A DNA stretch of 41,626 nt from Candidatus Omnitrophota bacterium (GCA_028711825.1 JAQTRM010000002.1:1-41626), one strand, 5' to 3'. Shown: positions 5,572 to 37,032, counted from the stretch's first letter. The notes: generated from the sequence alone by a model not told the origin. Made by a program: numbers and translations.

Positions 5572-6381
5572 TTACTCGATTATTGTAACTTCCGTGCCTG
5601 CGGGAATGATATCATAAAGCTCTTCCACATCGGAATTCTTCAGGCGCACACATCCCTGGGTCACCTGTTTTCCCAGATCCTGCGGCTCAGTGGTCCCGTG
5701 GATACCATAACCCGCCAGGTCGAAACCCATCCAGCGCGTACCCAGAACATTCTCCTGGCTCTCCGGAGGAACCACCGCACCCGCCTTAAACCAGGTAGGA
5801 TTGGCAAGCTTGTTGACAACCTTAAAAGTACCCGCGGGGGTACAATTATTCTTGCCGGTAGAAACAATATAGGTCTTCACAATCTCTTCGTCGCTCTTCA
5901 ACATGAGGATATTTTGCGATTTATCCACCAAAACACTGAAAGGGGAATTCCACACCTTGATCTTGCGGCCGGGGATAATAAGCGAATCGCTGATATTATT
6001 ACTTTTCATAATAAGCTCAACGGTAGTCTTGTATCGACGGGCGATCTTATTCAAGGTATCCCCGGGACGGATCTCATAGGTGATGCTCTTGGGGGTAATG
6101 GCGGGCGAAAAAAGCAGCTTAATATTTATCTCTTCGTTTTTCTTCTGCCAGTCCATTATTTCGGGGGATTCCGGAAAATCAGCAACCAGTTTCTGATATA
6201 ATAATTTAGCCCCCCAAAGATCCCCTTTAGATTCCAGATTACGCGCCTGTTCCGAAAGCGAACGCGTAGATGAACTCTCGGAAGAAGAAACGGTTTTACA
6301 TATCTTCTTGCCGCTTAAAAAAACAAGTGCGCCCCCGGCAACAACCACAGAAACGGCAATGATCCAAATCTTTTTATTCAC
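5572..6381 (-). CDS. LysM domain-containing L,D-transpeptidase (YkuD family)
   Basis: 269 aa. N-terminal TM helix; LysM motif [29 protein letters not shown]; YkuD catalytic region GIHGT...TQGCVRL. Confidence 0.85.
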
Positions 6382-17940: not shown

Positions 17941-18642
17941 TTATTTATTAAAACGAAAATTCACCAGATCCGCGTCCTGCATCTGGTAATCCTTCATCTC
18001 CAGGCGCATCTTACCCGCCTGTTTGGCCTGGGTTTCCCCTCCGCAAGCGATGAAATCGGCAAACCCGATTATCTCGGCGCGAATGAACCCCTTCTGAATA
18101 TCAGAATGGATCGTCCCGGAAGCTTCCCAGGCAGTAGTGCCTTTTTTAACCAGCCAGGCGCGGTTTTCCTTATCCCCTACGGTTAAAAAACAGATAAAAC
18201 CGCTTTGCGCCAAAGCCCTCGACAGAAAATTATCTATATCCGCCAGATCTTCCGGGCTCGCTTCTACCACCGGCTTCAAGGTAAAAAACCCGTACCCGGA
18301 AACAATTTCTTTTTCCGCGGCGCTTAAATCAAGGGTAGAAAGAAACTGCTCTTTTTCCAAAGCCCCCTTCATTTTGTTTAAAAGAACCTGCTCATTCTCC
18401 TCCGGGCCCTTGGAAAGACGGGTCTCCACGAAATCAAGGTCTTTAAGGATAAGATCCGCGCGGGCATCTCCGGGGATAATGATCATGTCGGCTTCCAACG
18501 CCCCCTCCGGGCCCGCCAACTCCGCCTGAGGATAGGTTTTTTTCTTGGCCTTAACCAGCTTGTCCGCCTGATCCAAACGGGAATCTTTAATATTATGCTT
18601 ACCCAAAACAATGCCTTCGGCCGCAAATACGCTTATTTTCAT
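17941..18642 (-). CDS. YchF-like protein lacking the P-loop G-domain N-terminus (coiled-coil insert plus TGS-like DUF933 C-terminal domain only)
   Basis: 233 aa versus about 363 aa for canonical YchF. It retains LDLSAAEKEIVSGYGFFTLKPVV and ENRAWLVKKGTTAWEASGTIHSDIQKGFIRAEIIGFADF...AGKMRLEMKDYQMQDADLVNFRFN. No GxxxxGKS/T and no DxxG anywhere. An in-frame TGA (18648..18646) lies two codons upstream of the ATG. Confidence 0.75.
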   Translation of the reverse strand: MKISVFAAEGIVLGKHNIKDSRLDQADKLVKAKKKTYPQAELAGPEGALEADMIIIPGDARADLILKDLDFVETRLSKGPEENEQVLLNKMKGALEKEQFLSTLDLSAAEKEIVSGYGFFTLKPVVEASPEDLADIDNFLSRALAQSGFICFLTVGDKENRAWLVKKGTTAWEASGTIHSDIQKGFIRAEIIGFADFIACGGETQAKQAGKMRLEMKDYQMQDADLVNFRFNK

Positions 18643-18803
18643 AGATCATAAAAGCCTAAAAGGCTTTCCTCTTAAATAGTTTATCAAATTATTGACCGGC
18701 GTAACCCGCCGATCCGGGGTTAAATTCCGGGGGCTTAAGCCGGAATCATGATAACATCCTGATTCCGGCCGGTAAAATTAGTCCTCATCCGCAGGATATA
18801 AAA

Positions 18804-19991
18804 TTATTCCAGGTAGGTATAAATCTTCCCCTTGTAATTGCGTAAAACGTATTTGCCTTTTGCTTGCGAAAGAATATAATTCGGGCCTACGGGAATCTTG
18901 CCTCCCCCTCCCGGGCCGTCGATAACATAAGTAGGGACGGCGTACCCGGAAGTGTGGCCGCGGAGCTTTTCGATAATATTAATACCTGTAGCCACCGGGG
19001 TGCGGAAATGCTGAGTCCCCCTCACCGGATCGCACTGGTAAATATAATAGGGTCTTACCCTGATCTGCAAAAGATCATGCACCAGTCGTTTCATAATGAA
19101 CGGACGGTCATTGATCCCTTTAAGCAGGACAGTCTGGCTGCCCAAAGGAATACCGCTTTCGGCAAGCATATCGCAGGCGTTCTTGCAGCGCCGGGTAATC
19201 TCTTTAGGGTGATTAAAATGCATACTCATCCAGATCGGCGAGTATTTTTTAAGCATCTGGGTCAATTTTTCGGTAATACGCTGCGGCAAGGTCACCGGGA
19301 TGCGGGTGCCGATCCTTAAAAACTCCACATGCGATATGGAGCGGATCTTGGAAATCAAAGATTCCAGGGCTTCGTCCTCCAAAGTCAAAGGGTCGCCTCC
19401 GGAAATCAAAACATCACGGATCTTACGGTTGGATTTAATATACTCTATCGCCGCATCGAACTTGGTGTCAAAATCCGCTTCTTTCTCTTCATGGTCGCCT
19501 ACCAGGCGGCGGCGGGTGCAATGCCGGCAATACATTGCGCAATGGTCCGTAGCCAGCAGCAAAACCCGGTCCGGATAACGGTGTACCAGATGCGGCGCGG
19601 GAGAATCGCGATCCTCGGCGCAGGGATCCGCCATCTCATGGGGCGAAACGGAAAATTCATCCCCCACCGGAACGGACTGCCTCCGGATCGGACAATTCGG
19701 ATCTTCGGCATCGATCTGGCTTGCCCAATAAGGGGTAATCGCCATCGACAACCTTCCCTTTGCCTTATCAATCCCCTTTTCCTCTTCGGGGGTAAGCTTA
19801 ATAATCTGGGCCAGCTCTTCCTTGGTATGGATACGATGTTTAAGCTGCCAATGCCAATCCTCCCAATCCAGGGGATTGACATCTTTATAAAGCGCGATTT
19901 GCTGGTAATCCCGGGAACGCTTGGGAGCCCGGTAAACTGCGGGCGTTTCAATCGCTGCCTTCTGATTCTCTAAGCTTACGGGATTATTCAA
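18804..19991 (-). CDS. kamA: Lysine 2,3-aminomutase (KamA family radical SAM / PLP enzyme)
   Basis: 395 aa. WEDWHWQLKHRI; SMAITPYW; radical-SAM cluster CAMYCRHCTRR; ISGGDPL; RPYYIYQCDPVRGTQHFRTP; RGHTSGYAVPTYVIDGPGGGGKIPV. The apparent start is TTG at 19991..19989, overlapping the upstream TGA (TTGA), and is preceded by the purine-rich ggaaaggaaaagg. Confidence 0.9.
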   Translation of the reverse strand: MNNPVSLENQKAAIETPAVYRAPKRSRDYQQIALYKDVNPLDWEDWHWQLKHRIHTKEELAQIIKLTPEEEKGIDKAKGRLSMAITPYWASQIDAEDPNCPIRRQSVPVGDEFSVSPHEMADPCAEDRDSPAPHLVHRYPDRVLLLATDHCAMYCRHCTRRRLVGDHEEKEADFDTKFDAAIEYIKSNRKIRDVLISGGDPLTLEDEALESLISKIRSISHVEFLRIGTRIPVTLPQRITEKLTQMLKKYSPIWMSMHFNHPKEITRRCKNACDMLAESGIPLGSQTVLLKGINDRPFIMKRLVHDLLQIRVRPYYIYQCDPVRGTQHFRTPVATGINIIEKLRGHTSGYAVPTYVIDGPGGGGKIPVGPNYILSQAKGKYVLRNYKGKIYTYLE

Positions 19992-20989
19992 TTCAGCCTT
20001 TTCCTTTCCGAGGCGCTTAAGAGTATCGCCTCAATAAGATCTTCGTATTTCATCCCGGCGGCATAAGCCATAAGAGGAAAATTCGACTCTTTAGGGTCCA
20101 GTCCGGGCAGAGGGTTGATCTCCAGAACATAAGGCACGTTGAATTTATTTAAACGGATATCGGTGCGCGAAATATCCAGGCATCCTACCGCCCGGTGGGT
20201 GCGTAAAGCGACATCCTTAACTTTCTCTTCGGTCTCCTTGTCCAGGCGGGCCGGACAATGGAATTCCGGGACTAAACCCAGCTCGCGGTTACCCTGGAAT
20301 TCCTTCATCTTCCAGGAATAAAAATACTCTCCGCTTTGCTTGCAGTTTGAAAAATCAATCTCCAGGATCGGCAGCACCCGGGTTTTTCCATTCTCCAGAA
20401 TCCCCACTGTCAGCTCTTTCCCTTCGATAAATTCCTCAACCAGCGCTTCCTGCTGGTAAAGATCAATACATTTCTTAACCCGGAGCTTAAGATCTTCCGG
20501 ATTATCCACCACATTCGTTTTATTGATCCCTTTTGCCGAACCCTCGCAATTAGGCTTAACGATCAAAGGGAATTTTAAACCGGGATCCAGGATTTCATTC
20601 CCTTTAACAAAAAGCTGGAAATTGGGAGTAGGGATATTCTCGGCCTTAAGGATTTTTTTTGTCAGGGTTTTATTCAACGCCAGCGCCAGAGAGAACATGT
20701 TGGAACCGGTATGCGGGATATTCAAATAATCCAATAACGCCGGAACCTCGCTTTCCCGGAAACGGCCGTGTTTCCCTTCGGCGATATTAAACACCATATC
20801 CACACGGTTCTGGCGGAAGTATGAAAACAACGCGGGATATTCCAGGTCAATCGCTTCCACCGAATGCCCTTTGGTTCTTAAGGCCGCGGCTACGGAATTA
20901 ATTGTTTCTTCGGAATCGCACTCTGAAAAATAATCTGCCGGTTTCAAAGGATCCTTTTTCTTTAAATTATATGTCAGGGCTACTCGCAT
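19988..20989 (-). CDS. ATP-grasp ligase, D-Ala-D-Ala ligase-like family (paralogue 2)
   Basis: 333 aa. FPLIVKPNCEGSAKGI (phosphate-binding loop), ALVEEFIEGKELTVGIL, and C-terminal Mg/ATP site DISRTDIRLNKFNVPYVLEINPLPGL. It lacks the canonical Ddl N-terminal GGxSxE motif. Confidence 0.8.
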   Translation of the reverse strand: MRVALTYNLKKKDPLKPADYFSECDSEETINSVAAALRTKGHSVEAIDLEYPALFSYFRQNRVDMVFNIAEGKHGRFRESEVPALLDYLNIPHTGSNMFSLALALNKTLTKKILKAENIPTPNFQLFVKGNEILDPGLKFPLIVKPNCEGSAKGINKTNVVDNPEDLKLRVKKCIDLYQQEALVEEFIEGKELTVGILENGKTRVLPILEIDFSNCKQSGEYFYSWKMKEFQGNRELGLVPEFHCPARLDKETEEKVKDVALRTHRAVGCLDISRTDIRLNKFNVPYVLEINPLPGLDPKESNFPLMAYAAGMKYEDLIEAILLSASERKRLN

Positions 20990-21982
20990 CTAACCCAATC
21001 CGTTTCTGAGCATCGCGCTGTTTAAAATCTTACCTACCATCTGCTCATAGGTAATGCCGATGTTTTTAGCTAAAAGCATAAAAACGTCTTCCGTAGACAA
21101 GGAGGGCAGCGGATTTATCTCTAAAACATACGGGTTCCCGTCCTGGTCCACCCGGAAATCCACCCGGCCGAAATCACGGCACTCCACGGCGCGGTAAACC
21201 TTGAGTGAAAGATCGTTGAGCTTTTTTTTCAGCTCGCTGTTAATTTTTGCCGGACAGATATATTCCAGGCGGTCGGAGGTAATCCTGGCAAAGGTATAAA
21301 ATTTATCGTTCAATTTAAGACGCCCGTCTATTTTTATCTGTACCACCGGCATCACTTCGGGGTTTTCGTTGCCGACGATCGCTACGGTAAACTCCTGGCC
21401 GGAGATAAACTCTTCCACTAAAGCAGGCTGCTTATAGGCCTTGGTAATAAAATCTACCTGCTTTTTCAGGCCGTCGATATTCTCGACGCGGGAACTCTCG
21501 CTGAGCCCCTTCGACGATCCCTCAAAACGCGGTTTAACGATCAGGGGAAAATTATATTTGGCCTGCTCGCCCAGCCCTTCGACGGAACTAACCTCAAAAA
21601 ATTTAGGAGTGGGAATGCCTTCGGCGATAAAGATCTTCTTGGCGATCACTTTATCCAGGGTAAGCCCCAAGGTCAAAGCGTCTGCCCCCACAAAGGGAAT
21701 CCCCGCCATCTCCAGCAAAACCGGAACCTGGGATTCACGGTTCCTGCCGCTTAAACCTTCGGAGATGTTAAAAACGATATCCACCCCCAGAGAATCGATT
21801 TTTTCCAGCAGGTTGGCGGCGTTACCGATCCTTTTCACCTCAAAACCGTTGGCGGCGATGGCGTCGGCGATTACATCCACCGTAGACAAAGCGTCGAATT
21901 CCGCGTTGGCGTCCTCCGGATCGCCCTCTTTAAACTGATAATCCGATTTTAAATCGTATGTCAATCCTACGGTTTTTACCAT
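20990..21982 (-). CDS. ATP-grasp ligase, D-Ala-D-Ala ligase-like family (paralogue 1)
   Basis: 330 aa. FPLIVKPRFEGSSKGL, ALVEEFISGQEFTVAIV, DFGRVDFRVDQDGNPYVLEINPLPSL. It is colinear with paralogue 2 over the full length. Its stop TAG directly abuts the next ATG. Confidence 0.8.
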   Translation of the reverse strand: MVKTVGLTYDLKSDYQFKEGDPEDANAEFDALSTVDVIADAIAANGFEVKRIGNAANLLEKIDSLGVDIVFNISEGLSGRNRESQVPVLLEMAGIPFVGADALTLGLTLDKVIAKKIFIAEGIPTPKFFEVSSVEGLGEQAKYNFPLIVKPRFEGSSKGLSESSRVENIDGLKKQVDFITKAYKQPALVEEFISGQEFTVAIVGNENPEVMPVVQIKIDGRLKLNDKFYTFARITSDRLEYICPAKINSELKKKLNDLSLKVYRAVECRDFGRVDFRVDQDGNPYVLEINPLPSLSTEDVFMLLAKNIGITYEQMVGKILNSAMLRNGLG

Positions 21983-22020
21983 GAAATATGCCGCTTCCCC
22001 TCTTAAAATATGCCGCTATT

Positions 22021-22065
22021 AAAAAAATAAGGGCCCACTTCCAAATGATTTGTTATGAGCCCTTA
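22021..22065 (-). terminator. Terminator/attenuator-like hairpin with U7 tract in the leader of the ATP-grasp/kamA operon
   Basis: On the minus strand, a 7-bp stem UAAGGGC (22065-22059) / GCCCUUA (22034-22028) encloses a 24-nt loop and is followed by seven U (plus-strand A-run 22021-22027). It lies about 40 nt upstream of the ATP-grasp 1 ATG. Confidence 0.4.
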
Positions 22066-22139
22066 AGAATTATCTGATTGTTTCCAACTTAGTTTTAAGC
22101 CTCCCTTAAACCTACGCAAAATATAGTAATATTGTTATT

Positions 22140-22168
22140 TTTTTACCACAAGATATTGACATTGTCAA
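22140..22168 (-). promoter_or_regulatory. Candidate sigma70-type promoter embedded in a 13-bp palindrome
   Basis: The minus strand reads TTGACA-17 nt-TAAAAA, with a TGn extended -10 (tggTAAAAA). The -35 is part of the palindrome ttgacaTtgtcaa (22156-22168). Confidence 0.3.
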
Positions 22169-22258
22169 GTCTTTTTTGCCCAAAAACGCGCGGGGCTATT
22201 TTAGTTTTTCCCGACGGAAAATAAAATTTTTATAAAAAACCCGCGGCATTTCCGGAAG

Positions 22259-22906
22259 CTATAAAAGCCCGTTGTTTTCCGGCAGGGAAACCGTTATTCC
22301 GCATTCCGCAAGATCGCGCAGAAAAGACTTAAAATCCGTGAAAACACTCCCTTTGAAACCCAGAGTTTTGGCGCTTTGGACAAGCTCAGGACGATCGTCG
22401 ACATAGAATATCTCATGCGGGGCCACCGCCAACTGCTGGACCACTGTTTCATATATCTTTTTATCCGGTTTGATCGTCCCCATCTTAAAAGAAAGAAAAA
22501 CTTCATCAAAAATCCCGAAAACCGGAAAATTTTTATTCAAATATTCATAATGCAGGATGTTGATATTGGAAAGCATCGCCAACTTGTAGCGCGAACGTAA
22601 AGAGTTTGCCGCCCCGAAAACCGCGCGATTCTTGGCACTCAAAAAGAAAATATCATTCCAGATCGGCTCAAAAGAAGAGTAGCTTAACTCCATTCCCAGC
22701 ATACGCTTAACCTCCAGGTAAAAATCCTGGGGGGAAATCTTACCGGCTTCGAACGCAAGAGTCGCAGGAGATTCGAAAAAAAGATCGTAAACCTGGCGCG
22801 GGGTTTTCCCGCAAAAACCCGCGATCCGCTCCGCGGCCCTTAAATGATCGAAATCCACCAGAACCCTGCCCAAATCAAAAAGAATAACCTTGATCTCCTG
22901 AGACAT
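22259..22906 (-). CDS. HAD superfamily hydrolase (subfamily IA-like)
   Basis: 215 aa. Motif I ILFDLGRVLVDF; motif II MLSNIN; motif IV FYVDDRPE. Confidence 0.8.
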   Translation of the reverse strand: MSQEIKVILFDLGRVLVDFDHLRAAERIAGFCGKTPRQVYDLFFESPATLAFEAGKISPQDFYLEVKRMLGMELSYSSFEPIWNDIFFLSAKNRAVFGAANSLRSRYKLAMLSNINILHYEYLNKNFPVFGIFDEVFLSFKMGTIKPDKKIYETVVQQLAVAPHEIFYVDDRPELVQSAKTLGFKGSVFTDFKSFLRDLAECGITVSLPENNGLL

Positions 22907-22909
22907 CGG

Positions 22910-23896
22910 CTAGTTTCCTTTATCTTTATTCTTCCGGAAAAGATCCAGGAATTTATCTTCATACTCTTTATAGACATTCCATTTGTCCAGTTCGACCTTT
23001 AGTTCCTTGGCCCGGCTGATATCACGGCGGCTTTCCTCAAAAAGTTTCTCAATCTTATCTTTGACCGAAACAGGCAGATTAGTAAGCTGACTCAGTGTTT
23101 TTTTAATCAGCTCCACCTCCTCTTCCCCGATCGGCCCGGATACCCCGGAATTTCCAAGCTTAAGATATTCCAGCAATTTATTAATTTCGGTTTCCAGCGC
23201 CTGCGCCTGGTCTTTAAGCGGCTGCAGATTTATCTGAAGGTTCATTATTTTTCCTAATGCCGCCAACACCGCCGCGGAAGCTTTGGGATTCTCGATCTGG
23301 ATGGTATAAAGAGGGATCTCACCTAAAAGACAAAACCCCTTAAGGCCGGCCTTTTTGGCGATTCCCAGAAAAAGTCCGTTCATCCCGCTGATCTGCCCGT
23401 CCGCCAAGGCCGCGAAATTATATTTCTTCAAAGACTCTTTGGTCTTCTGGTCGGTAGCGGCAAACCAAACGCCGGGTTCCTGAGTATGATCGGTAGCCTG
23501 GGGCATCGAAGCAAAGCTTGCCACGGAATCCACTTTGAGGTCCTTAGCCAGGGCAAGGATACTTTTTGCGTAAACATCGGCTTTTGAAAGATCCGGTTGG
23601 GCGTTGCTTAAAAAGATAACCAGATCGCTGCGTGAAACCGACCCTTTCAAAGAAGGATTTTTCCAATAATAAAATTTTCCCTGCGGCAGGCGCGGAACTT
23701 CCAGTATCCCCGAAGAAATAACGCTCCCGGTAAGATAAAAAAATTCATCCGGCATAATCCGCGCGAATTCCTTGGCATTAAGTTCCTGGATAAGATATTC
23801 GGCGGCCTTGAACGCCACTTCCCCCATCCCCGGCCAGGCGACAATAAGGCAGGGTTTTTTCAAACGCGGTTTCCGGGTAATGATCAAATTATTCAT
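22910..23896 (-). CDS. PAC2 (proteasome assembly chaperone 2-like) family protein with C-terminal coiled-coil extension
   Basis: 328 aa. CLIVAWPGMGEVAFKAAEYL and the GQISGMNGLFLG pattern are as I recall for the PAC2/COG1938 family. The last ~90 aa are K/E/L-rich coiled coil. Confidence 0.6.
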   Translation of the reverse strand: MNNLIITRKPRLKKPCLIVAWPGMGEVAFKAAEYLIQELNAKEFARIMPDEFFYLTGSVISSGILEVPRLPQGKFYYWKNPSLKGSVSRSDLVIFLSNAQPDLSKADVYAKSILALAKDLKVDSVASFASMPQATDHTQEPGVWFAATDQKTKESLKKYNFAALADGQISGMNGLFLGIAKKAGLKGFCLLGEIPLYTIQIENPKASAAVLAALGKIMNLQINLQPLKDQAQALETEINKLLEYLKLGNSGVSGPIGEEEVELIKKTLSQLTNLPVSVKDKIEKLFEESRRDISRAKELKVELDKWNVYKEYEDKFLDLFRKNKDKGN

Positions 23897-27677: not shown

Positions 27678-28508
27678 CTAAATCTTGCCGCTTTCTTCAA
27701 AACTTAAGATGTTGTCCAGGCGGAAAGTGCGCCTTTCCCGTTCAGGATAGCAGTCCCCGATCAAATACCAGTATTTATCGATCCGCTTGATCTGCCGGGG
27801 AAGAACCTCCCTCCAGGAAATTTCCCCGCTCCTGCTGGAAAGATACTTGAATTTTAAAATTTCCTGCGTCCGGATATGCGCCTGAATCAACCCGGAATTC
27901 CCCGGTTCCCCTTGCGCGGAAAAAGCGCCTTCAAAAGAAAAAAGAGTTAAAAAATCCGCAAAGGAAAAAATCCCTTTGCCGCGGCAAACTTCTTCCAGCC
28001 GGCAAAATACCTCCCGCGCCATCTCCGCGTCGGAAAAAGCGCGGTGCGACTGCGCCGATTTTATTCCCAGGGTCTGAGCCACAAACCAAAGCGCATAACG
28101 CGGCAGGCCGGGGAGCATCTTCCTGGCCATTGTCAGGATATCCAAAACCGAAAGATCCCGGATCGGCGGATAACCGGAAAGGACCAGTTCATTATTCAAA
28201 AACCCCAGATCGAATTCCGCGTTATAGAAACAAAGACAGCTACCTTTTATAAAATCCAGGAATTTCGGTATTACCGTTTCGATTGAGGGCGCGTTTTTAA
28301 GCATCTCCGGGGTAATCTTATTCACCGCGAAAGCCCCGGGCGAAACCGCCCTCCCCGAATTCACCAAAACGTCGAATTCGGAAATTCTCTCCTGCCCCCT
28401 GAACTTAATCCCGGACAGTTCCACGATACGGTCTCCGGAGGCATAAGACAACCCCGTGGTTTCGGTATCGAATATAACTAATTCTACTTCGTCGATATTC
28501 TTATCCAT
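27678..28508 (-). CDS. DEDDh 3'-5' exonuclease (DnaQ/epsilon-like) fused to a C-terminal WYL domain
   Basis: Exo I VIFDTETTGL; Exo II FYNAEFDLGFL; Exo III HRAFSDAEMA. The C-terminus ILKFKYLSSRSGEISWREVLPRQIKRIDKYWYLIGDCYPERERRTFRLDNI is a WYL-domain signature. I moved the start from the ORF-track 28592 to the ATG at 28508 (MDKNIDEV...), which leaves only an 8-nt overlap with the upstream gene. Confidence 0.8.
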   Translation of the reverse strand: MDKNIDEVELVIFDTETTGLSYASGDRIVELSGIKFRGQERISEFDVLVNSGRAVSPGAFAVNKITPEMLKNAPSIETVIPKFLDFIKGSCLCFYNAEFDLGFLNNELVLSGYPPIRDLSVLDILTMARKMLPGLPRYALWFVAQTLGIKSAQSHRAFSDAEMAREVFCRLEEVCRGKGIFSFADFLTLFSFEGAFSAQGEPGNSGLIQAHIRTQEILKFKYLSSRSGEISWREVLPRQIKRIDKYWYLIGDCYPERERRTFRLDNILSFEESGKI

Positions 28509-29397
28509 TGCGGGTTGCGATATAGGCGGACACCAACCGCTGCGGATGATAAGAAAGCTTTGTCTTGCGCAAATTCTCCAGCCCCGAATCATCCATAATA
28601 TTAATATACCGGTAACCCTCTAAAGCCCGGCTAAACTGACGGAAAATAAACTGCGCCAGCCCTTTGATTGAAATATCCGTAATCTCATAAAGCAGGCAAA
28701 AGGTATCCTTATTAAGCCGGCAGCCGAAGCTGAATGCCTTGATTTCCCCGGACACCTTAACAACAATTCCTTCTAAACCCAGATTTTTGTAGCTCCCGAA
28801 GGCTCTCTGCAGCACGCTCCTGCTATCCTGGAGCATGCCGCGATAGACCTCGTCTCCGCACTTCCCCTTGCGTTCTGCGGCCCAGGAATCAAAAAGTTCC
28901 AGGCAATCCTTACGGTCCGCGAGAGTTAATTTCCTCCATTCATAATCAAAATGCTTTATAAAATAATTACAGGAGGCGCGCTGCGGTTTAAACCGGTTGC
29001 CTTTAAGCTCCGCCAGGTCTTGGCGCGCGCAAAGATAATCCGGGTCTTTTTCACGGCAGCGATAACCTAAAGTACGATAATATTCCAGGTCTTCGGCGGG
29101 AATATTTTCGATGCGCGAAATATCGCGGTTTTTATTAAATTTGTCCATTTCCCGGAAAATGCGCCGCACGGCATCCGGGGAAGGCTTTGTGCCCAATGGA
29201 GGCAGATATAAAAAACATCCCAGGCGGTCCCGAAAGAATACACAAAGCGTCCTTTCGACAAAACACCATTGGATTCGATAAAACGGGCGCCAGATATAAA
29301 TATTAACAAAAGAAAAAGCCGACAGCTCATGCCGGCGGGAATAAAGATACCGGTCAAATAAACCCCGGTCTTTCAAAAACAGGCTATTCAGTTTCAT
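28501..29397 (-). CDS. Stand-alone DUF2156 protein (MprF/LysX C-terminal lysyl-phosphatidylglycerol synthase-like, GNAT-type aminoacyl-tRNA transferase fold)
   Basis: 298 aa. N-terminus YLYSRRHELSAFSFVNIYIWRPFYRIQW...LCVFF and the later GEIKAFSFGCRLNKDTFCLLYEITD...GLAQFIFRQF match my recollection of PF09924. Not searched. Confidence 0.65.
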   Translation of the reverse strand: MKLNSLFLKDRGLFDRYLYSRRHELSAFSFVNIYIWRPFYRIQWCFVERTLCVFFRDRLGCFLYLPPLGTKPSPDAVRRIFREMDKFNKNRDISRIENIPAEDLEYYRTLGYRCREKDPDYLCARQDLAELKGNRFKPQRASCNYFIKHFDYEWRKLTLADRKDCLELFDSWAAERKGKCGDEVYRGMLQDSRSVLQRAFGSYKNLGLEGIVVKVSGEIKAFSFGCRLNKDTFCLLYEITDISIKGLAQFIFRQFSRALEGYRYINIMDDSGLENLRKTKLSYHPQRLVSAYIATRNG

Positions 29398-31053: not shown

Positions 31054-31503
31054 TTACATCTTCCCTAGAACAATCAAAGTAAAGACCATCACAAATAAAG
31101 CTACAGTCTCTACAACACCTACGACCGCCAGGTAGTTTCCAAACCCCTTACCTGTTTCCCCCATGGCGTCACAGGCGCAAGCCGAACATTTACCCTGAAA
31201 TAAGGCGGAAGCCCCTATAGCTAAACCGGCAAAAGCGCCAACCCCCCACAGATACTGCCCGGCATTGGCAAGCTCAATCATCTTAGTCGCGACGATATTA
31301 CCGTAAATCGTCTGGGTCAAAGGCGCTCCCACTAAAGCAACCAGCAAAAATGAAGCGCTTTTATTCTGGCTGAAATTCTTTTTCCACGCCCCTATGGCGG
31401 CCATACCCGCTATCCCCGTTCCCGCGGCGGAACCCAGAGCGGAAAGTCCAAGAACTAGCTCTAAACCTAAATCCTTAAACTGCACCAAAACTCCTCCGTC
31501 CAT
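31054..31503 (-). CDS. ntpK: V-type ATP synthase subunit K (proteolipid, 4-TM duplicated c subunit)
   Basis: I moved the start to the ATG at 31503 (MDGGVLVQFKDLG...), 1 nt after the subunit I stop. The ORF-track start at 31560 would overlap subunit I by 56 nt. Gly/Ala-rich TM hairpins; PLTQTIYG, ALFQGK and VVETVALF. Confidence 0.85.
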   Translation of the reverse strand: MDGGVLVQFKDLGLELVLGLSALGSAAGTGIAGMAAIGAWKKNFSQNKSASFLLVALVGAPLTQTIYGNIVATKMIELANAGQYLWGVGAFAGLAIGASALFQGKCSACACDAMGETGKGFGNYLAVVGVVETVALFVMVFTLIVLGKM

Positions 31504-31504
31504 T

Positions 31505-33286
31505 TTAAACTCCTTCTTTCTTGCAAAACGGTTTATACGAAAACCCAATCCAGGAAACACCAGCGTGGCTACAAAACTCTAACACATTGAGCCTTACCCC
31601 GTGAACCAAGATTGACATCGGGCCCAGGATAAGATTAAGCATATGGCCGCAGACAATAACAAACGCGGCTATAACTATTGTCAGGATATCCCCTTTTTTA
31701 ACTATACCTGCTGCCATAGAATTAAAGGCGTCGGCGATCGCCACGGTTGCCAGCCCTACCGCAAAAAGGCGGATATACGAAACTACGTCGGTAAAGTTGT
31801 TTACCAGGCTTAAGGCTATTGTGCCCAGGCCCGCCCCCACCGCCTTGAAGATATTCTTCTGCGGACTACTGAAAAATAAAACCAGCAGCAACCCGGATAT
31901 GATCAGCCATGAACCGGATGACGGGAATACGGCGTCTAAGAGCAGGGTATTCGCAAGGAAAAATACCGCCCAAAGTATAAGAATCCACCCGACATCCGCC
32001 AGTGCGGACAACGAAGGGGCTTTCCGCATCGCCTTCCATCCATGAGCCAGGGAAAGATGTAAGGCCCCGATAAAAAAACATAAGCTTTGGAGAAAAGTCG
32101 CATTATTCAGCTTCGGCAGCAAAGGCTTTAACCCCATACCATGCAACCACTCCTGCCCAAAGAAAGTGCCGCTCAATAATCCCCATATCATAGCGCAAAA
32201 GCTCAACACATAAAAGAGAAAAAACACGCTCTTATCTTTTACTTTGCCCCCCATCTTCTTATATACCCATAAAGTCAACAGAAAATAAATCAACCCATAC
32301 CCGGCATCCCCTATGAGTATCCCGAAAAATATACTAAAAAATATGATAAATAAAGGGCTGATGTCGATCTCGGAATATCCCGGCACCAGCTCCAGGAGCT
32401 TCAAGACGGGTTTTATAAGCGAAACCCAGGCGGGATTGCGCAACAATGTCGGCACGGCATCATTCTCCCCGGGCTCTAATGTCAGGATCCCCCATCCGTT
32501 TTTTTTCGCCCGCCCGACCAATAAGTTTTCCGCATCTACGGGAATATATCCTTTTAAATAGGCAATCTCTTCTGTCCGTCCCATCCCTTTTAAAACCGAA
32601 TAAAACTCTTTTTCTTTTAACAAAAGGTTCTCTGCAGCAGTAAGATCATTGGAATAAACCGCGCAGGAAGATATTTCTTTCTTTATGCTCTGCATGATCC
32701 TGGTATCTTCACTAAGCCTCTTTTTCATGCCGGATAAAGACAGTTTAGGAAGTTCCAACTCCTTAAAACCTGTCTCGATACCCCCCATGCTTACAACCAG
32801 GCAATTTACCAGAACGCCTTGAGAAGAAATCTTTTTTATTACGATATCCGGAGGCAAGAGGGCAATCTTATCTTTAGATATCTGGTAAAGCTTAACTTGG
32901 ACATTATTGTCCTGTAAAGCCCTTAGCGCATCGGGATCAAAATCTCCCCAGGGGCTCCATAAATCTATCCAGCTGTGCAAAGTTACCGAATACTCTTTTA
33001 ACTGATCATGCCTTTTCTGCAAATCGATGACGTGGCGGCAGAAAACGTCTAAATCCCCCATCTGACCGGTCTTACCTTTTCCCGGTTCTACCGCCGCGGA
33101 TGCGGATAAAATCGTCCTGACCTGTTCGATCAGGGCAATCTTATCGTTGATCGCGCTAAGTTCGACTCCGGATGGGACATTATCATGTTCGACATGCACC
33201 ATCCCCAAAGAACCTAAATCCTCCAAAGCCTCCCGATCCTGCCCCTGACGCATAAGCAGAAATATTTTTTTCATCCCGACAATCAT
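31505..33286 (-). CDS. ntpI: V-type ATP synthase subunit I (a subunit, stator/ion channel)
   Basis: 593 aa. Soluble N-terminal half with coiled-coil hairpin, then a C-terminal polytopic domain with SYIRLFAVGLA (conserved Arg helix) and GHMLN...VHGVRLNVLEF. Confidence 0.85.
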   Translation of the reverse strand: MIVGMKKIFLLMRQGQDREALEDLGSLGMVHVEHDNVPSGVELSAINDKIALIEQVRTILSASAAVEPGKGKTGQMGDLDVFCRHVIDLQKRHDQLKEYSVTLHSWIDLWSPWGDFDPDALRALQDNNVQVKLYQISKDKIALLPPDIVIKKISSQGVLVNCLVVSMGGIETGFKELELPKLSLSGMKKRLSEDTRIMQSIKKEISSCAVYSNDLTAAENLLLKEKEFYSVLKGMGRTEEIAYLKGYIPVDAENLLVGRAKKNGWGILTLEPGENDAVPTLLRNPAWVSLIKPVLKLLELVPGYSEIDISPLFIIFFSIFFGILIGDAGYGLIYFLLTLWVYKKMGGKVKDKSVFFLFYVLSFCAMIWGLLSGTFFGQEWLHGMGLKPLLPKLNNATFLQSLCFFIGALHLSLAHGWKAMRKAPSLSALADVGWILILWAVFFLANTLLLDAVFPSSGSWLIISGLLLVLFFSSPQKNIFKAVGAGLGTIALSLVNNFTDVVSYIRLFAVGLATVAIADAFNSMAAGIVKKGDILTIVIAAFVIVCGHMLNLILGPMSILVHGVRLNVLEFCSHAGVSWIGFSYKPFCKKEGV

Positions 33287-33900
33287 GACATAGCCCCTTC
33301 TAAAACCATTTCTTCTATTTTCTTCTTGGCGATCTTACTGCGCCCCACGGCGTTAGCCATTTGATCTCCGATATAAATCTTGATCAGGCGGATATTCTCC
33401 TCCGCCTGAGGGATCTTTACTTTTTCAAATAAATTTACCCTTTGGGTAGTAACTCTCAATTCCCGGCGCAAAACATCCAGCCCCTGCCGAAGAGTATCAA
33501 TTTTTTTATGTAAACCGGCTAATTCTCGCAAAGACTTTATCGCGCTGTCCACCCATAAAGGAAAAAGAAAAAGATCGTAATCTTTTTCGGAAAACTCCAG
33601 GGCGTCAAACACCGGAACATCAACTCCGGCGATATTCTTAAAATGTGTAACCGTTTTATCCGGCTTGACGAAAGAATGGAAATCCTCCTGCGCTTCAGAT
33701 AACAGACCCGCCCAAACCAAAACCCCCTGCCTTTTACTCTCTAAAGACTGCTCGGCATTCTGCAAAGCCGTATTTTGCTGCAGAATTTCCAACTGTAATT
33801 GCTGTTTTTTTAGCTGTAAGGTAGGCAGATAACGCAGGAACTGTTTCAAAGAGTCGCGCTGTCTCTTCAACTCTCCTTTGGTAAATTTAATTTTCGCCAT
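33283..33900 (-). CDS. ntpD: V-type ATP synthase subunit D (central stalk)
   Basis: 205 aa. N-terminus KFTKGELKRQRDSLKQFLRYLPTLQLKKQQL and C-terminus RRELRVTTQRVNLFEKVKIPQAEENIRLIKIYIGDQ are typical subunit D coiled-coil termini. Confidence 0.85.
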   Translation of the reverse strand: MAKIKFTKGELKRQRDSLKQFLRYLPTLQLKKQQLQLEILQQNTALQNAEQSLESKRQGVLVWAGLLSEAQEDFHSFVKPDKTVTHFKNIAGVDVPVFDALEFSEKDYDLFLFPLWVDSAIKSLRELAGLHKKIDTLRQGLDVLRRELRVTTQRVNLFEKVKIPQAEENIRLIKIYIGDQMANAVGRSKIAKKKIEEMVLEGAMS

Positions 33901-33992
33901 ATCGATTTTCCGGAACGGTTATTTTTTAGGCCAGCCGTGTTAAAGCCGGTGTCATCGGAACTATTTTTACGGTTGCCGGAGGCAACCTGGCT

Positions 33993-35285
33993 TTAACGCG
34001 GCCAGAATTCCTGAATAACCGAAAGTTTGATCCCGGTCTCTTCCGGGGTAAAACAATCCGCCAGTATCCGCCAGCCCAGATCCAGGGCCTTTTCCAGAGG
34101 GATATTAACCTTAAGGGACATCATATTAGTCTCAAAAAGCGCCCCGTATTTTAAAAGTTTTTCGTCCCAGGCGCTCATCTGGAATCCCATGGACTGCTTC
34201 TCCAGGGTCTCGCGATAACTGGCAAACAGCTGGATCATCGTATCCATGATCGTGCGATGATCGGCCCGGGTCTTGCCGTTTACCTGCTGCTTGAGGCGGC
34301 TCAAAGAACCGAAAGGCTCAATCACCCCGGACTTCAGGTAAAACTGCCCCTCAGTAATATATCCGGTGTTATCCGGGACCGGATGCGTCACGTCATCCCC
34401 CGGCATGGTGGTGGCGGAAAGTATCGTGATGGAACCCGCACCTTCAAAATCTACCGCTTTCTCGTAGCGCGCGGCAAGCTGGCTGTAAAGATCTCCCGGA
34501 TAACCGCGGTTGGAAGGAACCTGCTCCATGGTAATAGCGATCTCTTTGAGGGAATCCGCGAAATTGGTCATATCGGTCAGAAGAACCAGGACCCGCTTGC
34601 CGGATAAGGCGAAATTTTCGGCCACCGCCAGACTGATATCCGGCACCAGCAGGCATTCCACGGTGGGGTCGGAAGCGGTATGCATAAAAAATATGCAGCG
34701 TGAAAGCGCGCCGTGAGCATTTAATGTTTCACGGAAAAAAAGGTAGTCGTCGTGTTTCAGGCCCATCCCGCCGACAATGATAATATCGACTTCAGCCTGG
34801 ATAGCGATCCGCGCCAGCAGTTCATTATAAGGCTCCCCGGCAATAGAAAAGATCGGCAGTTTCTGCGACTCTACCAGCGAGTTAAAAACATCGATCATCG
34901 GGATCCCGGTACGGATAATCTTTCCCGGCACAATCCTTTTAACGGGATTTACCGACGGAGAACCGATAGCGGTAAGCCCTTCGGAAAGAAGCGGGCCGTG
35001 ATCCATGGGAACACCGCTCCCGTTAAATATACGCCCCAGGAGATTATCCCCGGTAGCCACGCGCATCGGATGCCCCAGGAACCTTACCCGGTCTCCGGTA
35101 GCGATTCCGCGGGTGCCCGCGAAAACCTGCAGGGATATTTTTTTACCGTCGATACGGATAACCTGCGCCAGGGAAACCCCGCGGCGGGTGGTAATCTGGG
35201 CGATATCGGAATAACCTACTCCTTCGGCCTCTACGGTAATTACATCTCCGGCGATCTGAATAATATTCGTATAAGATTTTTGCAT
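33993..35285 (-). CDS. ntpB: V-type ATP synthase subunit B (non-catalytic)
   Basis: 430 aa. GQKLPIFS-type degenerate P-loop region ([16 protein letters not shown]), [61 protein letters not shown]. Confidence 0.92.
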
Positions 35286-35287
35286 CT

Positions 35288-37030
35288 TTATTTCTCTTTC
35301 TTAAACCTTTTGCTTCCCAAAAGGTTTGAAATTTGTTCTTCGATGTTTTTAAATTCCGGGGCGCCGAAAGCGGCGGAGTTCCAAGTCCGCATCAACTGCC
35401 GCAGGCTTTGAAAAAAATGCAGCGCCGCCGCCTTATCCCCGAGTTCATAATCCGCATCCAGCACCCCGCGGATGAAATCCAGAATATAAACCTGTCTTTC
35501 TTTAGCGGTAGCCTCGTCCACCGGATCAAAGGCATTCTGCTGCAAATACACGAAATCGAAAAAATCGCTTTTTAAATATTCGGTATAATCTTTTAAAGAA
35601 GTGCCTTCTTCCCCGATAACTTTCATCATCTGGGATATTTCGTTTCCGCGGCGCAATAAAGCGTGCAGCCTTTCCCGGTCTTCAGGATCGACAAAACCTT
35701 CATACTTGCTCCAGCTGATCAAAGGGTCGATCGCCGGGTATTTACGCGCGTCGGAACGTTCGCGGGAGAGCCCGTGGAAAGCCCCCACTACTTTAAGGGT
35801 TGCCTGGGTAACCGGCTCTTCGAAATTCCCGCCCGCCGGGCTTACCGCCCCGCCGATGGTAACCGATCCGGTCCCCCCCGAGCGCAGCCGGACCACCCCG
35901 GCGCGTTCATAAAAAGAAGCAATACGAGACTCAAGGTAAGCCGGAAATGCTTCTTCCCCCGGAATCTCCTCAAGCCTCCCGCTCATCTCACGCATCGCCT
36001 GCGCCCAGCGCGAGGTAGAATCCGCCAGCAACAATACATTTAAACCCATCTGGCGGTAATATTCGGCAATGGTAACCGCAGTATAAACGCTGGATTCACG
36101 CGCGGCAACCGGCATTGAACTGGTGTTACAGATAATCACCGTGCGGTCCATCAGCGGTTTTTTCGTCCGCGGATCGATCAACCCGGGAAAGGTCTTCAAT
36201 GTTTCAACAACCTCGCCCGCGCGTTCCCCGCAGGCGGCGATAATCACGATATCCACTTCGGCGTGACGGCTGATAAGCTGCTGCAGGACGGTCTTGCCTG
36301 CCCCGAAAGGCCCCGGGGTACAATAAGTCCCTCCGCGGTTCACCGGAAACAAAGAATCGATCAGGCGCATCTTGGTCACCAAAGGCTCCGTAGGCCTCAA
36401 TTTTTCCGCGTAAGCCCCGATAGAAATCTTCACCGGCCAAAGCTGCTGCATGCAAACATCGTGCGCCGCTCCGGAAGAATCCTTAAGGCGCGCGACCGGC
36501 TGTTTAAGATTATATTTTCCCGCGGGCGCGATAGTTTCAACCTCCAGGACTCCGGAAAGCGCAAAAGGCGCCATGATATAATGTTTGAATATCTTTTCCG
36601 GGACAAAACCCAGCCAGCTTCCCGGCATCACCTTATCCCCAGGCTTGGCCAAAGGAGTGAAATCCCATTGCGCCTCATCCGGCAAAGCCTCAAGATATAC
36701 CCCGCGCTTAAGAAAAAACCCGCATTTCTCGGCCAGCGCCGGAAGAGGATTCTGGAGCCCGTCAAAAATCTGGCCCAGCAGCCCGGGCCCGAGCTCCACC
36801 GAAAGCAGCTCTCCGGTAAACTCCACGGCATCCCCGGCTCTTAACCCCTGCGTGCTTTCGTAAACCTGCATCTCCGCCTGGTCGCCGCGCACGCGGATAA
36901 CTTCAGCCTTCAGGCGTTCCGCGCCGCAAATAATATAAGCCACTTCATTTTGAATAATCTGCCCGGCAACCTGCGCGGTCACCATGTTGGCGTTAACCTT
37001 GATTACTTTTCCCGTCCTGGTATTTTCCAT
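35288..37030 (-). CDS. ntpA: V-type ATP synthase subunit A (catalytic)
   Basis: 580 aa. Walker [67 protein letters not shown]. Confidence 0.95.
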
Positions 37031-37032
37031 CG

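Follow-up and report, generated by a model that had tools for sequence, protein, structure and literature searches.

A lysine 2,3-aminomutase gene coupled to two Ddl-like ATP-grasp ligase genes in Omnitrophota: a conserved uncharacterised module and its candidate beta-lysine peptide product

Beta-lysine is known from fermentation, from an acetylated osmolyte, from EF-P modification and from NRPS antibiotics; these known fates are few, and none of them is known to use an ATP-grasp ligase. The stretch of DNA analysed here (41,626 nucleotides, called the window below) comes from an uncultured bacterium of the Omnitrophota and carries a lysine 2,3-aminomutase gene directly behind two genes for Ddl-like ATP-grasp ligases (Table 1), which raises the question of what the three enzymes might make together. 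The trio was described in the first-pass annotation as abutting or overlapping, and its coordinates and both junctions were read from the sequence as claimed: at gggTTAGATGcga the stop codon TAG of Lig1 is followed by the ATG of Lig2 without a gap, and at ctgaaTTGAata the stop codon TGA of Lig2 is overlapped by the TTG start of KamA. It had also been stated that no known fate of beta-lysine is encoded nearby, and this was borne out among the scanned window ORFs of at least 150 aa, where neither kamDE, kdd, kce, an ablB-type GNAT, epmA nor efp was found; a lysine fermentation set (kamA-kamDE-kdd-kce-kal) and a B12-dependent 5,6-aminomutase were likewise absent from the scanned window ORFs. No published description of a KamA plus Ddl-like ligase module was found in the literature. 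The trio is a conserved uncharacterised module, shared as fused genes with many archaea and other bacteria.

Table 1. Features of the trio and of its upstream region, numbered along the window
Feature	Position	Strand	Description
KamA	18804-19991	minus	KamA/AblA-type radical-SAM, PLP-dependent lysine 2,3-aminomutase, 395 aa, TTG start
Lig2	19988-20989	minus	paralogous Ddl-like ATP-grasp amide ligase, 333 aa
Lig1	20990-21982	minus	Ddl-like ATP-grasp amide ligase, 330 aa
Intrinsic-terminator-like hairpin	22021..22064	minus	11-bp stem AAGGGCUCAUA/UGGGCCCUU, then AUUUUUUU
Leader	22070..22105	minus	GGGAGG, 12 nt, mini-ORF TTG (22087) to TAA (22070) = METIR
Promoter-like site	22140..22168	minus	TTGACA, 17-nt spacer, extended -10 TGgTAAAAA

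Conversion of L-lysine to beta-lysine is the predicted reaction of KamA and is well supported by its sequence. The motifs quoted earlier for the protein (CAMYCRHCTRR, YIYQCD...HFRTP and VIDGPGGGGK) were all found, and KamA aligns to the C. subterminale structure 2A5H with 484 bits (query 32-395 to chain 6-367). In this alignment C151, C155 and C158 correspond to C125, C129 and C132 (the radical-SAM CxxxCxxC cluster motif), R160 corresponds to R134, which we take to be the carboxylate-binding arginine, and K365, in the PGGGGK loop, corresponds to K337, presumably the PLP-binding lysine. The two aspartates said to contact the epsilon-amino group are present as well, D321 (YIYQCD) and D358 (VIDGPGGGGK) being aligned to D293 and D330, which we take to be the pair that holds the lysine epsilon-ammonium in 2A5H; the catalytic and lysine-binding residues (Fe-S, PLP and lysine sites) are thus all retained. 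Among curated families, AblA lysine 2,3-aminomutase (TIGR03820) fits best and is passed marginally (526.7 bits, cut-off 525.4), with model positions 6-360 of 417 covered. Assignment to EpmB was rejected, with 254.1 bits against a cut-off of 369.3 and no epmA or efp among the scanned window ORFs, and so were assignments to the glutamate and arginine 2,3-aminomutases (473.3 bits against 650 and 424.5 against 600, respectively), both aspartates of the lysine enzyme being retained. The earlier description of a true KamA rather than an EpmB stands for the KamA/AblA-like catalytic core and for the failed EpmB model, but not for the length of the protein: KamA stops where the Clostridium enzyme (416 aa) has residue 367 and is not full-length, because the C-terminal tail of about 50 residues is missing. 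The zinc ligands of the Clostridium enzyme are presumably C268, C375, C377 and C380; KamA has an arginine at the position of C268, and the C-terminal domain with the inter-subunit zinc site is absent in the 2A5H alignment. In Clostridium, the C-terminal tail reportedly supplies that site, as Lepore et al. are said to have described in 2005.

Lig1 and Lig2 are paralogs (40% identity, E 5e-71), and both carry a Dala_Dala_lig_C domain (PF07478; E 1.4e-39 and 2.1e-35, respectively). Lig1 is confidently predicted to take a Ddl-type ATP-grasp fold, its AF2 model (pLDDT 90) having only Ddl and Van ligases among its top 50 PDB fold matches, with a best TM of about 0.8. Both ligases had been credited with intact ATP/Mg sites but no canonical Ddl N-terminal motif, and alignment to E. 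coli DdlB agrees on either count. DdlB residues K97, K144, E180, E187, R255, D257, E270 and N272 fall in columns that are invariant in Lig1 and Lig2, and the GGxSxE(R/H)xVS motif is absent (LTYDLK...AEFD in Lig1, LTYNLK...SECD in Lig2); DdlB E15, retained in Lig1, is the lone aligned residue of the N-terminal motif, and the first 60 or so residues of both proteins are unaligned to solved Ddl structures (HMMER alignments begin near residue 60). The D-Ala site of Lig1 is changed from H63 to E, from Y216 to I or T (the alignments differ) and from S281 to D, and G276 is replaced by S; Lig2 also has E for H63, and its loop holds an insertion that makes the remaining positions ambiguous. Every Ddl equivalog model leaves both proteins far under its cut-off, and so do the general Ddl models, of which NF002378 gives the best scores (193.7 bits for Lig1 and 189.0 for Lig2; cut-off 243), with 160.2 and 162.6 bits for TIGR01205 (cut-off 245.65). 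On these grounds (160-194 bits against cut-offs of 243-246, a missing N-terminal motif and a changed Lig1 D-Ala site) the two proteins are not counted as bona fide Ddl. The Ddl half of the other test set in the first-pass annotation, which would fail if the ligases belonged with peptidoglycan Ddl enzymes, thus did not refute the proposal. The separation from Ddl is reinforced by close relatives of Lig1 and Lig2 in archaeal groups (Thermoplasmatota, DPANN) that are not known to make peptidoglycan or murein. The ligase domains of three archaeal KamA-ligase fusions are 41-44% identical to Lig2 and 37-39% to Lig1, and the single KamA-adjacent ligase of locus L111 is 44% identical to Lig2, which by these identities is the paralog closest to the archaeal KamA-fused ligase domain.

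The conservation of the trio was followed in 80 genome loci from a single phylum, picked by KamA similarity, across which KamA is 79-94% identical. The order of the three genes is retained in 65 of the 66 related Omnitrophota loci with enough upstream sequence and, since it recurs in this way, the arrangement is not a product of chance. Synteny of the ligases with kamA, which the first-pass annotation had made a test of its proposal, is therefore retained and extends to gene fusion. The trio is the best-conserved block of its region, with a median identity of 80-83% vs 56-71% for the housekeeping genes PurH, FolC and TrmE, and the genes that flank it vary between loci; its Omnitrophota neighbours include TrmE, a YchF-like gene and, inserted behind KamA in many loci, an EF-G-like gene. 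The carrier genomes are reduced.

Gene fusion is the strongest evidence for the module. Single polypeptides exist in both domain orders (KamA-ligase and ligase-KamA), and about 100 KamA plus ligase fusion clusters were counted among the best 120 matches to one fusion, from Thermoplasmatota, Woesearchaeota, Nanoarchaeota (DPANN archaea) and Methanocellales and, among bacteria, from a spirochaete (Spirochaetales) and a deltaproteobacterium. Tandem ligase-ligase fusions account for 37 of the 150 top-ranking representatives of the family. Next to a KamA plus ligase fusion there is usually another ligase, along with enzymes of tailoring or degradation (GNAT, deacetylase-like, MurL-like epimerase, S51 peptidase). 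The distant contexts include a fusion with two separate ligases, a fusion and ligase adjoining MscL and ion exchangers, a fusion with a ligase-GNAT in a Thermoplasmatota relative, a fusion with ligase and GNAT, a ligase-KamA with an S51 peptidase, a fusion with ligase and a deacetylase-like/GNAT protein, and KamA with a ligase and a MurL-like epimerase (MurL C-terminal domain), and the number of ligase domains per cluster ranges from 1 to 3. Two ligations are not universal, because the Omnitrophota locus L073 has one ligase only and a spirochaete carries the fusion by itself. The archaeal GNATs score best on PseH, SpeG and RimI models; the matches listed for them include no model of a beta-lysine acetyltransferase. 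The ligase family reaches beyond the KamA association: in one metagenomic clade, tandem ligase fusions have an S58 peptidase as neighbour and no KamA within 10 kb, and beta-lysine is therefore not a family-wide substrate. In Thioflavicoccus mobilis 8321, a cultured purple sulfur bacterium, a KamA and ligase pair is found on a plasmid together with SbnA/SbnB (2,3-diaminopropionate) and a diaminobutyrate transaminase, and these diamino-acid-forming neighbours link the ligase family to diamino acids. Taken as a whole, these distant neighbourhoods suggest a small molecule that would be both tailored and degraded.

The trio is apparently transcribed as a unit of its own. The spacer of the promoter-like site holds an operator-like near-palindrome, CAATATCTTG, which reads CAATATATTG in most relatives, and 61 of 67 Omnitrophota sequences share this promoter architecture 5' of Lig1; we infer a promoter and operator role for this site. 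In relatives the mini-ORF of the leader mostly encodes MEKIG, MEK, MKK or MEKPGIA, and full conservation in the leader alignment is limited to two blocks, GGAGG and TTG; no Rfam family matched the leader, and RNAalifold gave no conserved fold in its mini-ORF part. The hairpin (MFE -24.7 kcal/mol, z -2.4), situated within the 5' leader 38 nt ahead of the Lig1 ATG, recurs, with a stem that varies in sequence, across nearly all related loci, and in many distant loci the U-run stops 0-8 nt ahead of this ATG; it is a candidate attenuator. The combination of an own promoter with an operator-like palindrome, a mini-ORF leader and a terminator suggests regulated expression, probably by attenuation. 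A tie between the trio and the M20 deacylase and HAD hydrolase genes, raised in the first-pass annotation, is not supported by the data: these genes are part of a tightly overlapping upstream string, separated from Lig1 by a 276-nt spacer that carries the conserved promoter, leader and terminator of the trio, they are less conserved (medians 61-68% vs 80-83%), and the M20 gene is missing upstream in 13 of 48 loci. They appear to form a separate operon.

With moderate confidence, we read the trio as one self-contained biosynthetic module that would build a small, cytoplasmic peptide or pseudopeptide containing beta-lysine. KamA, using a [4Fe-4S] cluster, SAM and PLP, would shift the alpha-amino group of L-lysine to C3 and release beta-lysine (3,6-diaminohexanoate), the putative substrate of the ligases. 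Lig1 and Lig2 would then each spend ATP on converting a carboxylate to an acyl-phosphate for coupling to an amine, and together they would form two amide bonds around beta-lysine. The presumed product is a di- or tripeptide, and a short beta-lysine oligomer or an isopeptide formed via the epsilon- or beta-amino group are further candidates. The two proteins probably pair as a heterodimer, in the way that Ddl forms a homodimer, and Lig2 may accept beta-lysine directly, given its likeness to the KamA-fused archaeal ligase; since one Omnitrophota lineage retains Lig1 as its sole ligase, Lig1 could also act first. A compatible solute and a polyamine-like cation are candidates for the physiological role, although an osmolyte is a poor fit with strong conservation in reduced freshwater and landfill genomes, and the function could be more central.

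Several known systems resemble parts of this scheme. AblA/AblB, which makes N-epsilon-acetyl-beta-lysine (a methanogen solute; kamA-yodP in B. subtilis), also opens with an AblA-type aminomutase and derivatises beta-lysine on a functional group, and in archaeal relatives of the module a GNAT is present, either separate or fused to the second ligase. It differs in having an acetyltransferase where two ATP-grasp ligases are found here, with no GNAT among the scanned window ORFs, and in that the Omnitrophota carriers of the trio come from freshwater and landfill habitats. Small-molecule pathways whose ATP-grasp ligases act in series or alongside a GNAT, such as MysC/MysD (mycosporine-like amino acids), Ngg (N-acetylglutaminylglutamine amide) and carnosine synthase (beta-alanyl-histidine) condense amino acids, including a beta-amino acid, to protective metabolites; MysD is a Ddl homolog and Ngg is a GNAT and ATP-grasp fusion like that of the Thermoplasmatota relative. 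Unlike the module, these pathways are not known to have a radical-SAM aminomutase as precursor enzyme.

It is unlikely that the ligases instead build a polymer, that is, a reserve or polycation of the cyanophycin or poly(diamino acid) kind, with beta-lysine as monomer, one ligase for the backbone bond and the other for the branch or extension. ATP-grasp enzymes are able to polymerise, as in cyanophycin synthetase and RimK, and the variable number of ligase domains per cluster, the three diamino-acid-forming enzymes of T. mobilis, the S51 peptidase (cyanophycinase/dipeptidase E family) next to a ligase-KamA fusion and the S58 aminopeptidase (DmpA/BapA-type) next to tandem ligases are consistent with a polymer. 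Cyanophycin synthetase and cyanophycinase also combine non-ribosomal ATP-grasp joining of a basic amino acid with an S51 peptidase, but the latter likeness occurs in just one module context, and the module ligases are far smaller, lack a primer-binding or Mur-ligase-like domain and are nearest, in fold and sequence, to dipeptide-forming Ddl rather than to RimK or CphA. GNAT and deacetylase partners also fit a small amine better.

An envelope building block (for example a peptidoglycan stem or cross-bridge that contains beta-lysine) or a diverged housekeeping Ddl is quite improbable. Ddl/Van ligases are the nearest characterised relatives by sequence and fold, sharing with Lig1 and Lig2 the three-domain ATP-grasp fold (TM about 0.8, Lig1), the ATP/Mg and catalytic Arg/Asp/Glu/Asn residues and presumably the acyl-phosphate mechanism. 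Peptidoglycan is very likely present in the organism, an L,D-transpeptidase with LysM being encoded at 5572-6381 of the window, and one distant KamA and ligase pair adjoins a protein that has the C-terminal domain of the peptidoglycan-precursor epimerase MurL. Against this, the ligases fall under all Ddl cut-offs and lack the N-terminal motif (GGxSxE replaced, Glu retained) and the D-Ala-site residues listed above, and unlike Ddl and VanA the module ligases are paired, tandem-fused, KamA-fused and found in archaea, being common in Thermoplasmatota and DPANN archaea, which are not known to make murein. No mur or fts genes were found nearby in any locus scanned, and no transporter, flippase or transpeptidase partner in the scanned contexts. 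Very unlikely, finally, is attachment of beta-lysine to a protein such as a translation factor or ribosomal protein by an ATP-grasp analogue of EpmA/EpmB: KamA-family enzymes do feed EF-P modification (established for EpmB) ahead of ATP-dependent joining to an amine, some ATP-grasp enzymes (RimK, TTL, LysX) modify proteins, the Omnitrophota neighbours are translation-related (EF-G-like, YchF-like, TrmE) and the very high conservation of the trio hints at a core function, but EpmA is a lysyl-tRNA-synthetase paralog that acts via an adenylate, KamA fails the EpmB model, efp and epmA are missing from the scanned window ORFs and, together with any conserved small carrier or target gene, from the 9 distant contexts, Ddl-clade enzymes are known only as small-molecule ligases, and the module is accompanied by exopeptidases, GNATs, a deacetylase-like enzyme and an epimerase.

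Beyond the small beta-lysine peptide proposed for the trio, we suggest tentatively, and with some doubt, that KamA and Ddl-like ligases constitute a widespread, cross-domain and unnamed pathway to a new class of oligo- or pseudopeptides of beta-lysine or, more generally, of diamino acids with a core role, featuring a Ddl-like heterodimer and a novel mini-ORF attenuator. Such peptides might serve as a polyamine-like polycation or a stress protectant. If true, this would account for the top conservation of the trio in small Omnitrophota genomes and for the frequency of the module in DPANN and Thermoplasmatota. Module proteins are labelled in databases only as 'KamA family radical SAM protein', 'ATP-grasp domain-containing protein' and 'D-alanine-D-alanine ligase', the last of which is misleading. 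The question is testable, since T. mobilis 8321 is cultured and holds a related cluster. Identifying the product would extend beta-amino-acid metabolism by a new branch, would mend a systematic mis-annotation that bears on the peptidoglycan capacity inferred from 'ddl' matches in uncultured bacteria and archaea, and would perhaps uncover a metabolite important to ultra-small, host-associated microbes.

The two Ddl-like ATP-grasp ligases (Lig1 and Lig2) and the lysine 2,3-aminomutase-type radical-SAM protein (KamA) are encoded by tightly packed genes. The ATG of Lig2 directly abuts the Lig1 stop codon TAG, and the Lig2 stop codon TGA overlaps the TTG start of KamA in the tetranucleotide TTGA, as read from the sequence; the ORF and junction readings reproduce exactly the coordinates and gene junctions of the first-pass annotation. 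A known defence system was rejected as the identity of the trio, since PADLOC gave no match.

Positions and composition of the features and loci discussed (window coordinates unless a locus is named)
Feature	Position	Strand	Description or source
Lig1	20990-21982	minus	ORF, 330 aa
Lig2	19988-20989	minus	ORF, 333 aa
KamA	18804-19991	minus	ORF, 395 aa, TTG start
Promoter-like TTGACA-17 nt-TAAAAA, TG extension	22168-22140	minus	read from sequence
GGGAGG	22105-22100	minus	read from sequence
Mini-ORF TTG to TAA, METIR	22087-22070	minus	read from sequence
11-bp hairpin then AUUUUUUU (intrinsic-terminator-like)	22064-22021	minus	read from sequence
YchF-like gene	17941-18642	minus	233 aa
PAC2 family gene	22910-23896	minus	
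LPG_synthase_C/DUF2156 gene	28501-29397	minus	
V/A-type ATPase operon	31054-38165	minus	subunits I, K/c, D, B, A, E
EF-G-like GTPase gene	L041 9278-11230		650 aa
Lig1 + KamA, Black Sea Omnitrophota MAG	L073 6978-9185		
Tandem ligase fusion loci	L089 10001-13407; L087 10001-14375		metagenomes
Thioflavicoccus mobilis 8321 plasmid pTHIMO01	L114 3656-9137		annotated plasmids
Rhizobium leguminosarum UPM791 plasmid pRlvC	L115 6493-9101		
Deltaproteobacterium locus			fusion + ligase + ligase; contig look-up
Woesearchaeote locus			fusion + ligase, near MscL, Na/H and Na/Ca exchangers, CorA; contig look-up
ENA contig, fusion clustering with Thermoplasmatota hits			fusion + ligase-GNAT fusion; contig look-up
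Spirochaete locus			fusion alone; contig look-up
Methanocellales locus			fusion + ligase + GNAT; contig look-up
Bacterial locus			ligase-KamA + S51 peptidase; contig look-up
Further contig			fusion + ligase + deacetylase-like/GNAT protein; contig look-up
Further contig			KamA + ligase + protein with MurL epimerase C-terminal domain; contig look-up

KamA contains Radical_SAM and LAM_C domains (Pfam), and its top NCBIfam model is the lysine 2,3-aminomutase AblA, with a score just over the cut-off (526.7 against 525.4 bits); it stays under the cut-offs for glutamate 2,3-aminomutase (473 against 650), arginine 2,3-aminomutase (424 against 600) and EpmB (254 against 369). Among solved structures the only relative is the Clostridium subterminale enzyme 2A5H (484 bits), whose chain positions 6-367 align with KamA residues 32-395 with few gaps, so that C125/C129/C132, R134, D293, D330 and K337 of 2A5H correspond to C151/C155/C158, R160, D321, D358 and K365. 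Both aspartates that the first-pass annotation named as lysine contacts are therefore present (D321 and D358), and KamA is expected to convert L-lysine to beta-lysine. The earlier label of a true KamA holds for the KamA/AblA core, and by sequence the protein is a lysine-type 2,3-aminomutase core, but it is not full length: it ends at the equivalent of residue 367 of the 416-aa Clostridium enzyme and has an arginine at position C268, so that the C-terminal tail is missing. In the structure paper on the Clostridium enzyme this tail is reported to carry the inter-subunit zinc site.

Lig1 and Lig2 are paralogs (40% identity), both with a Dala_Dala_lig_C domain. Their best NCBIfam models are general Ddl models, which they match at 189-194 bits (cut-off 243) and, for a second model, 160-163 bits (cut-off 245.65), and every Ddl equivalog model is missed by hundreds of bits. 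Against PDB sequences, Lig1 (E = 1e-35) and Lig2 (E = 3e-28) match Ddl enzymes best, with HMMER alignments that start near residue 60; the 50 nearest PDB neighbours of an AlphaFold model of Lig1 (pLDDT 90, pTM 0.89) are all Ddl/Van ligases, at a best TM of about 0.8. Both ligases should bind ATP/Mg and form an acyl-phosphate, because the columns of E. coli DdlB residues E15, K97, K144, E180, E187, R255, D257, E270 and N272 are invariant. Other positions differ from DdlB: LTY(D/N)LK...(A/S)E(F/C)D stands in place of the N-terminal GGxSxE motif, DdlB H63 is replaced by Glu inside a family-wide FN(I)xEG..GRxRES motif, and Lig1 has Ile or Thr at Y216 and Asp at S281 (DdlB numbering). The sequences thus describe enzymes with a Ddl fold, predicted to be catalytically intact and scoring below the Ddl membership thresholds, that is, Ddl-like ligases and not Ddl. 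Lig2 is closer to archaeal KamA-fused ligase domains than Lig1 is (41-44% against 37-39% identity), and it is 44% identical to the single KamA-adjacent ligase of another compared locus (L111); of the two, Lig2 may be the one that accepts beta-lysine, although the Black Sea MAG keeps Lig1 and not Lig2.

When one genome per species was scanned for KamA, 80 loci came up, nearly all of them labelled Omnitrophota, in which KamA is 79-94% identical to that of the window, hence close relatives only. The order Lig1-Lig2-KamA with near-zero spacing is kept in 65 of the 66 loci that have enough upstream DNA; the sole exception is the Black Sea MAG, where a Lig1-type ligase (68% identical) lies immediately ahead of KamA and Lig2 was not found even at relaxed tblastn thresholds. 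Median identities across the related loci are 80, 82 and 83% for the trio genes, compared to 71% for PurH, 56% for FolC and 62% for TrmE among the neighbours and 68% (M20 deacylase) and 61% (HAD hydrolase) for the upstream genes. The trio behaves as one unit that is more strongly constrained than its neighbours; as similarity to KamA was the basis for selecting all these loci, and they belong to one phylum, this describes stability within the phylum and not independent recurrence. The flanks vary. Almost every related locus has the YchF-like gene downstream of KamA, more than 400 nt away in 35 of 60, and in many of them (L041 and about 35 others; not the window) an EF-G-like GTPase gene lies between the two. 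The similarity of the YchF-like protein to the ATPase YchF is confined to the C-terminal domain of the latter (residues 141-232 align with model positions 276-367), and no P-loop motif was seen in the N-terminus of the YchF-like protein.

The 276-nt interval between HAD and Lig1 holds a promoter-like element with an operator-like near-palindrome within its spacer, followed by GGGAGG, a mini-ORF and a terminator-like hairpin. The same layout (promoter, palindrome, GGAGG with mini-ORF, terminator) was found in 61 of 67 related sequences, where the mini-ORF mostly reads MEKIG, MEK, MKK or MEKPGIA and starts 12-14 nt past GGAGG; only 0-8 nt separate the end of the U-run from the Lig1 ATG in many distant loci. 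This leader is best read as a dedicated promoter with a candidate translation-coupled attenuator, and on this reading the trio would form its own transcription unit, apart from the upstream EndoIII-M20-PAC2-HAD gene string. A known riboswitch was rejected on an Rfam scan of 18600-22400 at E<=10, which gave no family and just two chance-level matches, and the riboswitch reading as such was dropped in favour of mini-ORF and terminator because RNAalifold on 23 leaders found no conserved fold beyond the terminator, whose loop aligned poorly. That attenuation works through lysine codons of the mini-ORF is a speculation: AAA codons are frequent in the mini-ORFs, but METIR of the window contains no such codon, and in some relatives the ORF is just a start and a stop. 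No RNA-seq run contains the locus, which occurs in landfill and groundwater DNA metagenomes only. The M20 and HAD genes had been thought possibly related to the trio; neither the comparison of loci, with M20 missing upstream in 13 of 48 and another gene inserted between HAD and Lig1 in some, nor the upstream conservation, nor the apparent promoter and leader of the trio supports this. Between M20 and HAD, as part of this string of tightly overlapping genes, the bacterium encodes a PAC2 (proteasome assembly chaperone 2) family protein. Elsewhere in the window are a V/A-type ATPase operon and a stand-alone phosphatidylglycerol lysyltransferase C-terminal domain without the membrane flippase part, for which no link to the trio was found.

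Since the genome scan gave only close relatives, linkage beyond the phylum was assessed through fusion proteins and contig look-ups. A profile built from 40 diverse members of the family, aimed beyond Omnitrophota, returned only Omnitrophota Lig1 orthologs. A HMMER search with Lig1 against 1.84 billion cluster representatives gave 1196 matches at E<1e-30, and the best 150 comprise 95 single ligases, 37 tandem ligase-ligase fusions and two KamA fusions, one ligase-KamA (P0187) and one KamA-ligase (P0248). A search with P0248 found about 100 clusters of full-length KamA-ligase fusions among the 120 best matches, from Thermoplasmatota, Woesearchaeota, Nanoarchaeota, Methanocellales, Spirochaetales and Deltaproteobacteria, whose database names go no further than 'KamA family radical SAM protein' or 'lysine 2,3-aminomutase'. 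The KamA halves of these fusions match the AblA model at 495-533 bits, and KamA comes first in some and the ligase in others. The sequences show both conserved linkage and fusion, and the occurrence of fusions in either order in two domains of life strongly indicates that aminomutase and ligase act on one metabolite. A cultured carrier of a related cluster is Thioflavicoccus mobilis 8321, in which a family ligase adjoins a KamA protein (47% identical to that of the window, both Asp residues kept), together with SbnA, an SbnB-like cyclodeaminase and a diaminobutyrate transaminase, makers of other diamino acids; three enzymes that form diamino acids are thereby gathered around one ligase. On pRlvC a KamA family gene adjoins a biotin-carboxylase-type ATP-grasp protein and an amino-acid dehydrogenase, near fixAB, a pairing of aminomutase and ATP-grasp protein of another subfamily than the trio ligases.

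The ligase pair also exists without KamA. A metagenome scan with the tandem fusion P0123 gave 19 loci encoding ligase-ligase fusions of about 700 aa, none with KamA within 10 kb, and in both loci examined a Peptidase_S58 (DmpA/BapA-type aminopeptidase) gene follows the fusion. On this evidence the ligase pair is the more ancient element, and KamA supplies a precursor in part of the family.

The enzyme families are known; their combination and its product are uncharacterised, and no description of a KamA-ligase module was found in the searchable literature, although the 2009 ATP-grasp amidoligase survey of Iyer et al. might mention it. In the proposed pathway the ligases would take beta-lysine as substrate and make two amide bonds, probably as a Lig1-Lig2 heterodimer, which the frequent tandem fusions and the homodimeric state of Ddl suggest, and the product would be a small cytoplasmic peptide. 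In other lineages the module has acetyltransferases, a deacetylase-like enzyme, an epimerase-like protein and exopeptidases as partners, a set that suits the tailoring and recycling of a small amine-bearing metabolite. By analogy with AblA/AblB and Ngg such a product could be an osmolyte, consistent with the GNAT partners and one ion-channel context; protein modification or a murein precursor fits these partners less well. Freshwater and landfill as habitats, along with the very strong conservation of the trio, fit an osmolyte poorly and argue for a more central role, such as that of a polycation.
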